This document shows, in pieces, positions 7,869 through 46,682 of a DNA stretch of 50,831 nt. This DNA is from Armatimonadota bacterium. Lineage in GTDB: Bacteria > Armatimonadota > Fimbriimonadia > Fimbriimonadales > Fimbriimonadaceae. Within the stretch, counting starts at the first letter, position 1; each line of letters begins with the position of its first letter. Where the stretch lies: contig JANNQV010000014.1 of assembly GCA_031400935.1 (NCBI GenBank), positions 1-50,831 of the forward strand, given 5' to 3'. The notes below the pieces were generated by a model. It had not been told where the DNA came from and did no database searches. It was given only the letters and a program-made list of their open reading frames with translations. Both the position numbers and the translations under genes were made by a program.

Positions 7869-8243
7869 TCAGACCCTTCCGGCCAGAATTTGCCCCGTGA
7901 TGAACAATGCCATCCCGATCGCGGTAAAGAAAAACAAGACTCGGACCAATCCTTTGAGTTTCTCAGTCCTCTCGGCTCGTTTGAGTTCCTCACCGTGGGC
8001 GCCCTTTCGAAGTTCGACCAACTGCATGCTTTCGCCGAACTTCGTTGCCTCGGGCCAATGGCGCAGGGCCTGGCCCACTTGAGCAGGCGATGGGTCTTTC
8101 TCGAGGGCAACCCTAAGCGCGCGCATCTCTTCCCTGCTCGCGTTGAGCTGTGCAGCCAAAAAGTGGCACACAACGGCGGTAACCCCCGTTGCAATCGCAA
8201 CTATCAAGCTGACTATGCCCACAATTTTGATAATCTCTTCCAT
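7869..8243 (-). CDS. Hypothetical small membrane protein (2 TM)
   Basis: ATG start with TAGAGT -10-like box 8 nt upstream; hydrophobic N- and C-terminal helices. Confidence 0.7.
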   Translation of the reverse strand: MEEIIKIVGIVSLIVAIATGVTAVVCHFLAAQLNASREEMRALRVALEKDPSPAQVGQALRHWPEATKFGESMQLVELRKGAHGEELKRAERTEKLKGLVRVLFFFTAIGMALFITGQILAGRV

Positions 8244-8483
8244 GCACTAACACTCTACCGGGCTAAGCTCTATCAATGCCCGCAATCGGGTCTGAGGCTG
8301 GTTGAATCATGGACTCTGGATTTTGGAATCCCAGTTCTTCCCAGTGATAAACACTAACAACCTTCCAACAACCTCGCATTCCTGCTAGTTACATGAGCTA
8401 AGTAACCCCGTATAATGATCTTGATTCGCAACACAATACGATTCTAAAATGTGTTGTTGATGAAGAACTGGAGGAATTTCAAA

Positions 8484-16789: not shown

Positions 16790-17983
16790 TCATGCCGATG
16801 TGGATTCTAGGGCCCGTGATACATTTCTCACCTTGGGGTTGATGTTCTCTGTTACAGTCATCCGAGTTGCCGAACAGTACATCATGAATTCTTTCATAGT
16901 CCGTTTCAATTCATCATAGAATTCCTTGCCTACCTCCGTGGATTCAAAGTGCCACTCTCTCACTTCCAAGACTCCGTTGCGGCAATAGAATTCAACTCGA
17001 GCCACAAGTTCATTTCCAAACAAAACTGGCAACACATAGTATCCCCATTTCCGCTTAGCCACAGGCGTATAAATCTCCCAAATGTAGTCAAAGTCAAAGA
17101 CGTGCTTGATCATCTTTCGATCCCACACGAATTGGTCAAGCGCTGCGACGAAAATAACCCGGGACTCTAGCGATGGCTTGTCTAGAAGTGAAAGAAATTC
17201 CGGTGTTGCATGTGCCTTAACGCCCTCTACTTCTACCGGCACGATTTCACCTCTTTGAACTAGTTCGGTCATCGCTTCTATTTTGCCGTATGACAAAACC
17301 TCTAACGACCAAATTTCGGGTGGAGCCGACGGTCTAACAATGCCCATTGACCGGTGCCGTTCCAATACTAACTCGCGCACTGCCACTCTGTCATCTAGAA
17401 TTGGCTGGCTGAATAGATGGCTTGGAACTACGCGCTCCGTCAAGTCATAGATGTGCTGGCCGTTTTTGCGCCCTGCAGTCATGATTTGCCCGGAATGCCA
17501 AAGCGCCTTGAGAATATTCTTGGTAACGCTTGGGCCGAACCAACTTCCCTTCCATTCTTCGCGCCGCTGTTGAAAATTGAATTCTCTCGGCAATAGCGGC
17601 CCTCTATCTATGATTTCTTTCAAAATCAGATCTGCGGCTTCTCTGTGATCTTTGAATATCTTTTCTTCGAACCAGCGACGGTGTACAGTGTAGAAGATTC
17701 GTCGCAGAGGCCAACCTTCAAATGGCACAAGTGAGGCCATCTTGTCCCATCCATCGTAAATGTGCCGATCCTCATAAGCGAGCTTCTGCCAGTCGCCAAT
17801 TTTGTAGAGTGAGACACGGGCTTGCAAAACTAGGTCATGGTTGCAGCCGACAGGCGCTATGGGGTCGAATTGGATGCTCCGAAGCCGGTCGAAGACGTCC
17901 ATCTGCGAAGCGCAAGGCGTGAAATGATGCCGAACCATCGCCTTCCTGACATCGAATTTAGATAGTTTGACGGGAAATGACAC
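16790..17983 (-). CDS. YcaQ/AlkZ-family (HTH_42) DNA glycosylase, crosslink repair
   Basis: IQFDPI QxD motif, YDLTERV, DQFVWDR, FDFDYIWEIYTPVAKRKWGYYVLPVL. Confidence 0.9.
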   Translation of the reverse strand: MSFPVKLSKFDVRKAMVRHHFTPCASQMDVFDRLRSIQFDPIAPVGCNHDLVLQARVSLYKIGDWQKLAYEDRHIYDGWDKMASLVPFEGWPLRRIFYTVHRRWFEEKIFKDHREAADLILKEIIDRGPLLPREFNFQQRREEWKGSWFGPSVTKNILKALWHSGQIMTAGRKNGQHIYDLTERVVPSHLFSQPILDDRVAVRELVLERHRSMGIVRPSAPPEIWSLEVLSYGKIEAMTELVQRGEIVPVEVEGVKAHATPEFLSLLDKPSLESRVIFVAALDQFVWDRKMIKHVFDFDYIWEIYTPVAKRKWGYYVLPVLFGNELVARVEFYCRNGVLEVREWHFESTEVGKEFYDELKRTMKEFMMYCSATRMTVTENINPKVRNVSRALESTSA

Positions 17984-18082
17984 GGCACATTTTATCTTGA
18001 TCTGCCCAGAAAATGAGGTAGTGAAGTGATGACGCGAAGCGGACGCGCTTTGAACTCTTTGCGAGAATGGTAGTCTCTCGTC

Positions 18083-18604
18083 ATGTGGCTGAACGACTGC
18101 ATTATCAAGGATCCGTCACAGCTGGAACTTCTCATCTTCGGCTCTGAGGCGGCATATAGCGCGGCAAAGCTGGATAGGGATCGTAATTCTCAGGCCATCC
18201 TTGATATCGGCCCAACATTCACGATCGCTGAGGAGTTGTTCGAAGTTCTTGACAGTGATCAGTGCAAGAGCATAATCGCGTCTCTGGGTGCGGGCATTGT
18301 GTTCCCTGGCCGTGAAGTTGAAGGCGGGAGCTTCAACATTGCGAACCTTAGGTACCACAAGGTCATTATCGTTTCAGAGATGTGCGAAGCTGGCCGAGAC
18401 TTTCGCATCGAAGTTTTGCGATTTTTTTTCACCTATATGCGCCCACTCATTGTGTACGGCCACATTTTCGTTCTCGAGAGGTCTCTTGAGCAAGGGTTCA
18501 CCCAGCAAGAGTTTGTCGAACATGTCCTCGATCCGGTAACTCGACGCTTGAGAGTCATCGAAGGTGCGGACACTTTGGAAGCCGTCCTTTCAAGGCTCGA
18601 CTAG
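18083..18604 (+). CDS. Stand-alone degenerate GyrB/ParE TOPRIM plus C-terminal tail homolog
   Basis: LNDC..KDP..LELLI, DRDRNSQAIL, IIASLGAGI, FNIANLRYHKVII, FFFTYMRPLIVYGHIF and LDPVTRRL align by eye to the GyrB C-terminal half; catalytic EGDSA and DxDxDG motifs are replaced. Confidence 0.85.
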   Translation: MWLNDCIIKDPSQLELLIFGSEAAYSAAKLDRDRNSQAILDIGPTFTIAEELFEVLDSDQCKSIIASLGAGIVFPGREVEGGSFNIANLRYHKVIIVSEMCEAGRDFRIEVLRFFFTYMRPLIVYGHIFVLERSLEQGFTQQEFVEHVLDPVTRRLRVIEGADTLEAVLSRLD

Positions 18605-18617
18605 CTTCGGAAACAAA

Positions 18618-18694
18618 TGGTACTCCCGACGGGATTCGAACCCGCGATCTTCGCCGTGAGAGGGCGATGTCCTAAACCGCTAGACGACGGGAGC
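18618..18694 (-). tRNA. tRNA-Glu (CTC)
   Basis: GCTCCCGTCGTCTAGCGGTTTAGGACATCGCCCTCTCACGGCGAAGATCGCGGGTTCGAATCCCGTCGGGAGTACCA; cloverleaf, anticodon CTC, encoded CCA. Confidence 0.97.
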
Positions 18695-18736
18695 ACACGT
18701 GGAGTGAAAAAGGTACCTGATTTGGAGGGCACGTCC

Positions 18737-18790
18737 GCAAGTGGTTGGCAGGTAGTTGGCAAGTTGCAGACAACTTACAAACGGCTCTAC
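18737..18790. repeat. 11-bp-period repeat (GCAAGTAGTTG-like)
   Basis: gcaagtggttg gcaggtagttg gcaagttgcag; same family as 22482-22520, 22632-22680 and 23811-23832. Confidence 0.7.
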
Positions 18791-21411: not shown

Positions 21412-21580
21412 ATTCAGTTTTCTCCTCACCTCGGACGATTTCTTCAAAACGAATGTTCGAGGCGGACTTATCTATAGGTACAACTATTGTGGGCGGTTAG
21501 CTACAAAATTCGTTTAAACCGGGACTTTTGGCCCTAATCGAATGATCCAGGAACTCGCTCCCTTTCGGTAATCTTAGCTC

Positions 21581-22465
21581 ATGGCTCTGCCCGTTTATCA
21601 AGGAACGCGATTTGATCCAGGTTCAGATTCGCCGTTGCATATTGATGCACCGCTTGTCGCCGATTGGCTTGTTCGATTTCTGAAAGACGAATGTATCCGC
21701 CGCCGAAAGATGAATAGGGCGATTCTCGGACTTTCGGGAGGCGTGGATTCGGCAGTAGTTGCCTATTTATGCGCTAAGGCGTTTGGACCTGAAAACGTCA
21801 TCGCTTTCCGACTTCCTTACAAATTATCGAGCCCAGAAAGCCTTTCTCATGCCCAATTAGTGATTGATGATCTTGGAATCCACGAAAAGACAATTGATAT
21901 TACAAAAATGGTGGATGGCCTAACGACAGAGGTGAATGGCTTCGTTTCAATTGCTGAGCCAAACATTTCCCCAGCAAGACTTGGGAATATTTGCGCCAGA
22001 TGCAGAATGATCGCCCTATTTGATCAATCCGCCAGTTTTGGTGGCCTTCCGATTGGAACTGGAAACAAGACTGAACGGCTCTTTGGATACTTCACTTGGC
22101 ATGCCGACGATACCCCACCCATAAATCCCCTCGGCGACCTCTACAAAACCCAGGTATGGCAATTGGCTTCATTTTTAGGTGTGCCGCAGGTGATCATTGA
22201 CAAACCCCCAACAGCCGACTTAGTTCAGGGGCAAACGGACGAGGGCGACTTTGGCATTTCGTTTCAGAACGCCGACCGTATCCTCCACTACCTAACGCAG
22301 GGCTACACAAAAGAGAAACTGATCTCATTAGGATTTCGTGAGGCTGAAGTTCTTCTCGTCTGGGACAAAGTAGCGGGAACTCATTGGAAAAGGCGTCCGC
22401 CAACGGTTGCAATGCTTTCGACGACGGCGATCGGGGAATATTACTTACGGCCAGTTGATTATTAG
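21581..22465 (+). CDS. nadE: NH3-dependent NAD+ synthetase
   Basis: GLSGGVDS, GNICARCRM, GTGNKTE, GDLYKTQV, KPPTADL and QTDE motifs; no glutaminase domain. Confidence 0.95.
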   Translation: MALPVYQGTRFDPGSDSPLHIDAPLVADWLVRFLKDECIRRRKMNRAILGLSGGVDSAVVAYLCAKAFGPENVIAFRLPYKLSSPESLSHAQLVIDDLGIHEKTIDITKMVDGLTTEVNGFVSIAEPNISPARLGNICARCRMIALFDQSASFGGLPIGTGNKTERLFGYFTWHADDTPPINPLGDLYKTQVWQLASFLGVPQVIIDKPPTADLVQGQTDEGDFGISFQNADRILHYLTQGYTKEKLISLGFREAEVLLVWDKVAGTHWKRRPPTVAMLSTTAIGEYYLRPVDY

Positions 22466-45705: not shown

Positions 45706-46431
45706 CTAGGATTTCAAGCTCTTAATACCCGGCTTAAGGAGCGACAAGTATACCAAAGCACCCGCACCAAGCGCGGCTGCTCCGATACCAACCCAGCCTA
45801 CGATTGGAAACCCATCGTCAGAATGGGACGGTATTTGTGCAGGCTTTGGTTCTGGCAACCTATCAGGAAACTCAATTTGATCGGGCTTTTTGGCGATGAC
45901 TTCGATTCGGTATTCAATTGCCGGCTTAGGACTATTGAGAATTCGAGCCTCGGCATTCAAAACACTTTCTATTTTAAATGACTTGACCGTTCGTTCATTT
46001 GGCCGAATGCCTTCGAACAACAACGAAAAACCCTTGATTTGCAACGGTTCTGGATCACCGACAAACGCTTTCAAAAAAGGTTCAATTCGCATCGTATTCG
46101 AATTAGAATCCATTAGGCCGTTAATCGAAAACATTCCCTTTACAAACACCATCTTTGGATCATTGCCAGAAAGTGGGTATTTTCCTGTTACCACACCCCT
46201 GGTTTCGGCTCCGAGATTTCGACCCAACTGAAGGATCCTCTCGTTGAGCAATTCGGGCGGGTAATTCGGGTTCAACATCGTAATTTCAACCATGTTTGCA
46301 CCGGTTGGATGAGGTTTGACGACTACCGTTATGTCCGGTCTGACTGTCGTGAAAAGGCTCTCGGCAACTTTTGGCTCTTGTGCAGAAGCGAATGCAAAAC
46401 AGAGCAATCCAAGAAAACCGTACGGGCGCAT
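45706..46431 (-). CDS. Hypothetical exported protein with C-terminal membrane anchor
   Basis: Signal peptide ending ASA, Pro-rich linker, C-terminal TM plus basic tail. Confidence 0.75.
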   Translation of the reverse strand: MRPYGFLGLLCFAFASAQEPKVAESLFTTVRPDITVVVKPHPTGANMVEITMLNPNYPPELLNERILQLGRNLGAETRGVVTGKYPLSGNDPKMVFVKGMFSINGLMDSNSNTMRIEPFLKAFVGDPEPLQIKGFSLLFEGIRPNERTVKSFKIESVLNAEARILNSPKPAIEYRIEVIAKKPDQIEFPDRLPEPKPAQIPSHSDDGFPIVGWVGIGAAALGAGALVYLSLLKPGIKSLKS

Positions 46432-46682
46432 AAGGAAAGACTACCTTCCAATTTGGAAATCAGGTCATTTTGTGGAAAGATTGTAGGAAGCCTAAAGAAA
46501 TCGGCAAATTGTGAAACGCTCACTTGAAACTGCGCGTAATTGAACATTTCGGGACGTTTGTGCCCGTAAAAATTACAAGTGAACCGATATCAAACCTTGA
46601 GTCGTCAAACGGTGATATTCGCAAAGAGACAATAGTTGGATATAATCGCACGACTTACCTAGTGGCCTAAGTGGGGCAAATA

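Follow-up and report, generated by a model that had tools for sequence, protein, structure and literature searches.

A free-standing paralogue of the gyrase B TOPRIM domain that has lost its catalytic residues in the Fimbriimonadaceae

The window analysed here, a stretch of 50,831 nucleotides from an Armatimonadota bacterium of the family Fimbriimonadaceae (assembly GCA_031400935.1, contig JANNQV010000014.1), carries a short gene for a stand-alone TOPRIM domain of DNA gyrase subunit B (GyrB) without its catalytic residues. We refer to the free-standing mini-GyrB protein family as the minis and to its member at 18083..18604 (+) as the window protein. The minis descend from gyrB, have kept the fold of its TOPRIM domain, are under purifying selection and have lost the catalytic residues family-wide; the mini is a pseudoenzyme paralogue of a topoisomerase domain. 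Tentatively, and with somewhat less than even confidence, we read it as a non-catalytic mimic of a gyrase subunit. Comparisons within the family rest on an alignment (A2) of 55 minis, 51 from a protein library and four read from loci, with 26-55% identity to the window protein. Below, G000 denotes the window's own genome and other G codes the genomes of relatives; L codes denote loci and C codes contigs.

The open reading frame comprises the TOPRIM fold followed by one helix, one strand and one short helix from the C-terminal region of GyrB. NCBIfam models of GyrB and ParE matched the window protein with E values of 5e-21 to 3e-9 (5e-21 to 2e-20 for the GyrB models), and the alignment was confined to profile positions ~404-535 of ~640 (639-641). 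The ATPase (GHKL) and transducer domains are absent, the NCBIfam match beginning at TOPRIM, and an in-frame TAG stop lies three codons upstream of the ATG (18071-18073), inside a -10-like promoter element. The original prediction, made from the sequence alone, had claimed both of these features as well as an order of motifs following the C-terminal half of GyrB, and every motif pair it listed is seen in the alignment to PDB sequences and in our table of alignment columns. The best PDB-sequence matches were TOPRIM constructs of S. aureus GyrB (E = 2e-17, residues 3-167), and identity to GyrB TOPRIM chains was 28-45%.

Scores against the curated models were far from those of a true subunit, at 72.9-74.6 bits compared with cut-offs of 740-882 bits (TIGR01059, NF004189), and thus below the GyrB/ParE threshold. 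A Pfam scan of the window protein returned nothing at E <= 1, Toprim (PF01751) included; among the 55 minis, 25 matched PF01751 at E <= 0.01, with a best value of 1.5e-7. None of the 55 matched DNA_gyraseB_C (PF00986) at E <= 0.01, and in the window's own genome the real gyrB, on C59, was the sole match to that family. From these comparisons, the window protein is best classed as a GyrB TOPRIM by descent and fold that lacks every other mark of GyrB or ParE: it falls short of the curated score threshold, has neither the ATPase half nor PF00986, and has lost the catalytic residues.

An AlphaFold2 model built on the alignment of 55 minis had a mean pLDDT of 93.6 and a pTM of 0.89, and shows the Rossmann-like alpha/beta core of the Toprim fold. 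Foldseek superposed it on S. aureus GyrB TOPRIM chains with TM scores of 0.83-0.85 and a probability of 1.00, so that a structural comparison with GyrB, proposed as a check on the assignment, bore it out. Relative to the GyrB of the same genome, the window protein is missing everything before LxDC, ~39 residues separating PPLF and GLGEM, and the last ~29 residues, with the motif LMGDxVExRRxFI. In full-length GyrBs, hmmsearch accordingly gave two separate matches (profile positions 3-135 and ~124-168), 27-40 residues apart. The "TOPRIM plus tail" of the original prediction therefore stands for TOPRIM, whereas the tail is a mere stump, with these internal and terminal residues gone and no PF00986. 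The best-matching S. aureus crystallization constructs also lack the segment between TOPRIM and the C-terminal helices, a segment known as the Greek key. These GyrB27 constructs (6qx2, 5cdn, 2xcs) share the fold and the collinear elements of the mini and lack the same segment. Compared with the B' module of GyrB, the mini is free-standing, without the ATPase-transducer half, PF00986 and the last ~29 residues; compared with the GyrB TOPRIM, it is acidic and without the catalytic Glu, DxDxD and RGK residues.

The extent of this catalytic loss was counted in the 55 minis against 104 full-length GyrBs. The catalytic Glu of EGDSAGG is kept in 3 of 55 minis compared with 104 of 104 GyrBs; in the column table, the counterpart of GyrB VEGDSAGG in the window protein is FGSEAAYS (residues 19-26). 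All three Asp residues of DxDxD are likewise invariant in the 104 GyrBs. In the minis the first is D in 25 and E in 17 of 55 (Glu in the window protein), the second is D in a single sequence and S or T in 39, and the third is D in 8 and E in 16. The RGK lysine occurs in none of the minis and in all of the GyrBs, and the residue before the RGK Gly, basic in 69 of 104 GyrBs (R in 47, K in 22; W in 32), is Asp in 29 of 55 minis. The window protein lacks the acidic signature of the Toprim superfamily (Glu plus a DxD cluster), and the median isoelectric point (pI) of the minis is 4.86. The earlier claim that the Mg-binding motifs are gone is borne out for the Glu, the second Asp and RGK; it needs qualifying for the first DxDxD Asp, a position that is still acidic in 42 of 55 minis and is Glu here. 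On this evidence, DNA cleavage by the protein is most improbable, and DNA binding probably does not occur either.

What has been kept is mostly scaffold. Conserved in 87-100% of the minis are L3, D5, C6, E15, R32-D33-R34, Q37, A38, L40, G69, G71, L89-R90-Y91, G104, G126 and R154, and 11 alignment positions reach >= 90% among the 55. The window protein retains LxDC, E15, RDR, QA(I/V)L, G69/G71, LRY, G104, G126 and R154. In the beta-2 strand, QA(I/V)L, conservation is 98% for Q, 100% for A and 87% for L. A second set of conserved residues is specific to the minis: D57 (80%), A66 (84%), F144 (91%), V148 (73%) and T153 (74%).

To assess how widely minis occur, we searched 175 species genomes of the same family, representing 50 genera. 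Short mini-like frames were found in 17 of the 175 genomes and 10 of the 50 genera, and all 17 genomes also have a full-length gyrB. The full architecture, frames of 163-237 residues matching the profile to its end, was present in 13 of the 17 (G000, G014, G046, G065, G066, G072, G078, G087, G116, G138, G140, G148 and G152). The frames in G058, G059 and G111 are shorter, and that in G151 (L068:7995-9275) continues into a 429-residue frame whose extension is of low complexity and rich in Arg and Pro; it could have arisen by fusion, read-through or loss of the stop codon. No minis were found in 53 genomes from the four other families of the order (a set that includes G198), nor in 353 genomes from the other families of the phylum at E <= 1e-46, a threshold that excludes gyrB and may miss weaker minis.

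A profile search of a library of 1.84 billion representative proteins gave 3,547 matches at E <= 0.001, and at least 51 minis (151-188 residues, matched nearly from start to end, without catalytic motifs) were among the best 150 of them. In a name-bearing database, the 68 profile matches were three minis and gyrB fragments, and the three minis were unnamed and without precomputed Pfam domains; the window protein alone, as query of a word-based search, retrieved only itself. Several apparent relatives were rejected. The 80 loci matched by a six-sequence alignment were all ordinary full-length gyrB genes from many phyla, with no further minis among them, and L120, whose match appeared to extend to residue 173, encodes an 843-residue GyrB. 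Library proteins of 200-330 residues that start at TOPRIM (P0065, P0080, P0098 and others) still have their catalytic motifs and are pieces of gyrB or frameshifted calls, and look-alikes in the ESM Atlas are clusters of catalytic Toprim fragments outside the mini family.

All 12 orthologous frames read from DNA are intact. The ratio of non-synonymous to synonymous substitution rates (dN/dS, by NG86) was 0.35 for G087-G065 (dS 0.80) and 0.25 for G000-G046 (dS 1.38, near saturation); pairs more distant than these two are saturated. Differences by codon position always ranked third > first > second, with 80, 54 and 40 for G000-G046. The minis are under purifying selection, looser than is usual for housekeeping genes. 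The proposed checks for similar-length homologues and for dN/dS thus both came out in favour of a functional gene.

To place the origin of the family, we inferred a tree by maximum likelihood (FastTree, LG+gamma, 194 trimmed columns) from the 55 minis and 104 GyrB segments from TOPRIM to tail. The minis formed one clade (support 1.0) on a stem of 0.63; they had been pre-selected by length and coverage, so that this grouping is partly by construction, whereas its placement inside the GyrBs of the order is not. The clade is nested in 27 GyrBs of this and a sister family (0.984) and, with them, in all 33 GyrBs of the order (0.999). Measured from the parent node, the mean distance is 2.58 for the minis compared with 0.19 for the single sister GyrB, a 13-fold difference. 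The tree is most simply explained if the lineage duplicated and truncated its own gyrB once and the copy then diverged fast and was often lost.

Elsewhere in the library, the 175-residue protein P0085 is also a dead mini-TOPRIM (FIVQGEATAQ, LPILGTF, LLTTPNPVG), and its remaining motifs (GIGEGPGAF...QQMPELI) resemble another GyrB type, as in the Verrucomicrobiia GyrB of L120. P0085 may represent an independent origin of the architecture; because it apparently comes from a different GyrB lineage, the mini solution may have arisen more than once.

The window's genome (2.97 Mb in 67 contigs, 95.6% complete) has one complete gyrB, a 724-residue frame on C59 with EGDSAGG, PLRGK and DADVDG intact, and one gyrA, on C18 (823 residues, 1,015 bits against TIGR01063). 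An intact gyrB elsewhere in the genome had been named as something to confirm, and its presence together with gyrA means that the mini is not the cell's gyrase. This GyrB shows about the same identity, ~50%, to GyrBs from many phyla. It carries an insertion of ~25 residues within TOPRIM, between GVGI and FDLSKLRYHK (G000:C59; L151:940-3111, -), which splits its matches to the mini, and GyrBs of this type are present in most mini-bearing genomes. In a sister family, we also observed over-long gyrB frames of 1,187-1,361 residues with interrupted matches (G030, G209, G210, G216 and G223) and over-long gyrA frames of 1,231-1,468 residues with split matches (G027 and G039), which are probably due to inteins. 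G110 has a second full-length GyrB/ParE-like gene (L069:6764-8702), a 646-residue frame with intact catalytic motifs.

The mini appears to have its own promoter, as the original prediction held. The element TGGTAGTCT (18068-18076) ends 6 nucleotides (nt) ahead of the ATG, which implies a leaderless mRNA, and GGTANNNT recurs with identical spacing ahead of 7 of 13 orthologues, two more having near-variants. Among 2,675 open reading frames of >= 150 residues in the genome, TANNNT starts at position -12 from the start codon in 176, compared with ~35 at other offsets, and GGTANNNT starts at -14 in 50, compared with ~3 elsewhere. The element of the mini sits exactly at these modal offsets, and each of the window's four GGTANNNT-N5-8-ATG matches ends precisely where an open reading frame starts. 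A generic sigma-70 scan did not call the element and gave only an intragenic match at chance level. The mini thus looks to have the ordinary leaderless-type promoter of its host and, with the element at the modal leaderless offset of the genome, translation most likely starts at M1, directly at TOPRIM.

RNA evidence comes from one contig of a sediment metatranscriptome (Table 1), which covers the last 167 nt of the frame and reaches across the 13-nt spacer into the convergent tRNA-Glu gene. It could equally be the 3' trailer of a tRNA-Glu precursor. The rest of the window has no cover in this run, including the 5' three quarters of the frame, and this says nothing on absence of expression. tRNA-Glu(CTC) is covered many times over, by RNA and DNA contigs from many organisms, and in the small-share DNA runs X4 and X6 the matches are mostly to the tRNA and to neighbouring genes of relatives. 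The two runs that contain nearly all of the window, and from which it may come, are labelled freshwater sediment metagenome.

Table 1 Features of the mini gene and its surroundings in the window.
Feature	Position	Strand	Details
Mini-GyrB open reading frame	18083..18604	+	173 residues; ATG start; pI 4.8; net charge -10
-10-like element TGgTAGTCT	18068..18076	+	Hexamer TAGTCT at 18071-18076; ends 6 nt before ATG
GGTANNNT-N5-8-ATG match	18068-18085	+	Open reading frame start
GGTANNNT-N5-8-ATG match	21567-21583	+	Open reading frame start
GGTANNNT-N5-8-ATG match	46429-46445	-	Open reading frame start
GGTANNNT-N5-8-ATG match	8241-8259	-	Open reading frame start
GSEAAYS replacing GyrB EGDSAGG	18140..18160	+	Residues 20-26; Gly at the catalytic Glu position
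DIGPTFTI replacing GyrB PLRGKILN	18203..18226	+	Residues 41-48; Arg/Lys and Lys DNA-contact positions lost
SEMCEAG replacing GyrB TDADVDG (DxDxD metal site)	18374..18394	+	Residues 98-104
Junction lacking ~39 GyrB residues (PPLF to GLGEM)	18485..18493	+	Residues 135-137; from the genome's own GyrB sequence and hmmsearch
RNA-run contig, 228 nt	18438..18656	.	Unstranded in the data; sediment metatranscriptome X7, record 25; 1 mismatch; depth 31.6
tRNA-Glu(CTC)	18618-18694	-	Convergent with the mini; 13 nt separate it from the mini's stop codon
AlkZ-like (YcaQ-type) glycosylase	16790..17983	-	PF06224, E = 5.5e-42; divergent from the mini

The genomic context of the minis is variable. The divergent YcaQ-like glycosylase pointed out in the original prediction is indeed there, as an AlkZ-like gene, and its association with the mini is weak and not conserved across loci. 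No neighbouring family is common to more than 3 of the 17 loci; the penicillin amidase found in three of them is explained by residual synteny. None of the 53 nearest neighbours scanned is an integrase. A genome of the same genus, G001 (85% complete), lacks a mini and shares 82-86% nucleotide identity with the flanks. Window positions 17986-18787 were compared with G001:C117 and G001:C506 (L191-L193), where the match reaches the AlkZ start on one contig and takes in the tRNA-Glu plus amidase on the other, with other genes past both flanks. With different genes there and no mini, the gene lies at a synteny breakpoint beside tRNA-Glu(CTC).

Genes related to DNA-damaging agents adjoin minis in several genera, a pattern noticed after the fact and not conserved. 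L060 (G138) has an AlkD-like DNA_alkylation enzyme (PF08713; L060:8520-9224, +) and a DinB_2 protein (L060:6656-7135, +), and L058 (G148) has a glyoxalase/bleomycin-resistance fold protein (L058:9467-9832, +). HEAT-repeat proteins directly adjoin minis in two loci (L053:6414-7931, - and L061:8544-9890, -), and BLASTP found no relation between the two.

How might such a protein work? In our tentative reading as a gyrase-subunit mimic, an ancestor of this bacterial family would have duplicated its own gyrB, and the copy would have kept only the TOPRIM fold, starting exactly at LxDC, and gained a leaderless promoter. It would have lost the ATPase-transducer half, the ~39-residue segment after TOPRIM, the conserved C-terminal domain and the metal-binding and DNA-contact residues, and turned acidic. 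The product would be a real, expressed, non-catalytic pseudo-TOPRIM protein. As it cannot be expected to cut or, probably, to hold DNA, we infer that it works by protein-protein contact. Gyrase is the most likely partner, because the best-kept motifs are those shared with GyrB and because the lack of an operon partner is in keeping with a partner gene at another site, for instance gyrA or gyrB. The mini may pair with the GyrB TOPRIM or occupy the TOPRIM site on GyrA, dampening or shielding the cleavage centre, and would act as an accessory modulator in some species only. Published passages on gyrase interfaces are consistent with such a role. F514, I517, L518 and P519 of M. tuberculosis GyrB', the counterpart of QA(I/V)L, form the core of a Toprim-Toprim dimer (PMC2761264). 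A fragment comprising residues 12-41 of E. coli GyrA maps to the GyrB interface, and fragments that copy interfaces inhibit growth (PMC11831152); inhibition in vivo by such gyrase fragments is a further reason to consider gyrase the partner.

A bolder version, possible in our view but doubtful, is that the minis are the first gyrase modulators made from gyrase, a dead TOPRIM that would slot into the A2B2 enzyme, or pair with the GyrB TOPRIM gate, and reversibly block cleavage of the G segment. If so, some species would have a switch to throttle supercoiling or to shield the cleavage centre from poisons.

Several observations weigh against a gyrase-directed role. Conservation of HIRTLLLTFF, QPPLY and GLGEM, all conserved in GyrB, is gone in the minis, and several GyrB surfaces have drifted. 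The C-terminal domain of GyrB, which carries much of the contact with GyrA and anchors GyrB on it, is absent (PF00986 in 0 of 55 minis). GyrA binding, dominant-negative action and a decoy role, put forward in the original prediction, are thus candidate functions at most, and with most of this anchor missing, simple docking on GyrA as GyrB does is less likely than assumed there. Conservation of QA(I/V)L may reflect folding alone, and RNA support consists of one unstranded contig over the 3' end. Presence is patchy, in ~10% of species and not in the same-genus genome G001, which indicates that the gene is dispensable.

The same data can be read, with somewhat lower probability, as a scaffold put to new use unrelated to gyrase, with another protein partner or a small ligand and with gyrase ancestry as mere history. 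The residues specific to the minis (D57, A66, F144, V148, T153, and S or T at the second Asp in 39 of 55) differ from GyrB, many GyrB surface motifs are lost, and the long stem of 0.63 and the branches 13-fold longer than that of the sister GyrB fit such a change. Gene context yields no candidate for the other partner, however, and the most strongly retained motifs are those shared with GyrB.

We consider it unlikely that the minis are decoys or sponges, whose TOPRIM-shaped surface would soak up molecules directed at the GyrB TOPRIM, such as proteinaceous toxins, phage anti-gyrase proteins or natural-product poisons, and thereby protect gyrase. In favour, an accessory, patchy and fast-evolving gene resembles many conflict genes, DNA-damage genes lie beside minis in several loci (AlkZ-like in the window, AlkD-like and DinB_2 in L060, glyoxalase-fold in L058), and the DNA-contact site, its charge reversed by Asp in 29 of 55, would suit basic ligands. 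Yet none of the 55 minis matches any PADLOC defence model (PADLOC-DB, E <= 0.01), and no neighbour association is conserved. The known TOPRIM-contacting drugs bind a composite site of GyrA, GyrB and DNA, which a lone TOPRIM without those residues cannot form.

Retained enzymatic activity, as a metal-dependent nuclease or phosphotransferase with an altered TOPRIM site, is very improbable. An acidic residue stands at the first Asp position in 42 of 55 minis and at the third in 24, with S or T at the second in 39, but the invariant TOPRIM Glu remains in only 3 of 55 (Gly here) and the second Asp in 1; the site of the window protein reads E-M-C-E-A, with no DxD, and the acidic surface argues against nucleic-acid substrates. 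That the gene is a decaying fragment of a duplicated gyrB, as truncation at both ends, destroyed catalytic motifs and absence from most relatives, including a same-genus genome, might suggest, is already contradicted by the family, selection and fold results, for frames of the same length and start occur across 10 genera at 27-55% pairwise identity to the window protein, the clade is monophyletic, dN/dS is 0.25-0.35, core residues and promoter element are conserved and the fold is confidently predicted, so that repurposing rather than decay, as first proposed, is upheld.

Gyrase is essential and a major antibiotic target, and its regulation from within the cell is poorly understood. A conserved, dead copy of its cleavage domain maintained by selection would offer a natural probe of the TOPRIM surfaces used for assembly and gate opening and, should the mini bind gyrase, would define a new, self-derived class of topoisomerase regulator. 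The family is also a clean case of pseudoenzyme evolution: it arose once, its parent is dated, and what was lost is limited to residues of catalysis and DNA contact.

Full-text literature searches and excerpts of a 2024 review of gyrase-inhibiting proteins (PMC10886550) gave no description of a free-standing dead GyrB TOPRIM. Small chromosomal modulators of gyrase covered there, the nearest classes in functional terms, include YacG, which acts at the TOPRIM region of GyrB, GyrI/SbmC, MurI and the pentapeptide-repeat proteins Qnr and MfpA, and none of the modulators given a heading in that review is derived from gyrase itself (PMC10886550). If our favoured reading as a subunit mimic is right, the mini would resemble YacG, GyrI, MurI, Qnr and MfpA in being small and non-enzymatic and in tuning or shielding gyrase; it has no sequence or fold relation to any of them and shares no ancestry with them. 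YacG was not found in the window's genome. A natural stand-alone piece of a gyrase subunit is Gac of Borrelia burgdorferi, the C-terminal domain of GyrA made as a separate protein from within gyrA, which keeps DNA binding. Like the mini, Gac consists of a single subunit domain with its own job, whereas the mini is a separate, diverged paralogue without the ancestral activity. In phage T4, gp60 of topoisomerase II is a separate C-terminal piece of the GyrB-like subunit and a working part of a split, active enzyme. Both gp60 and the mini are small separate polypeptides with part of a GyrB-like TOPRIM region, but the mini is catalytically dead and coexists with a complete gyrB.

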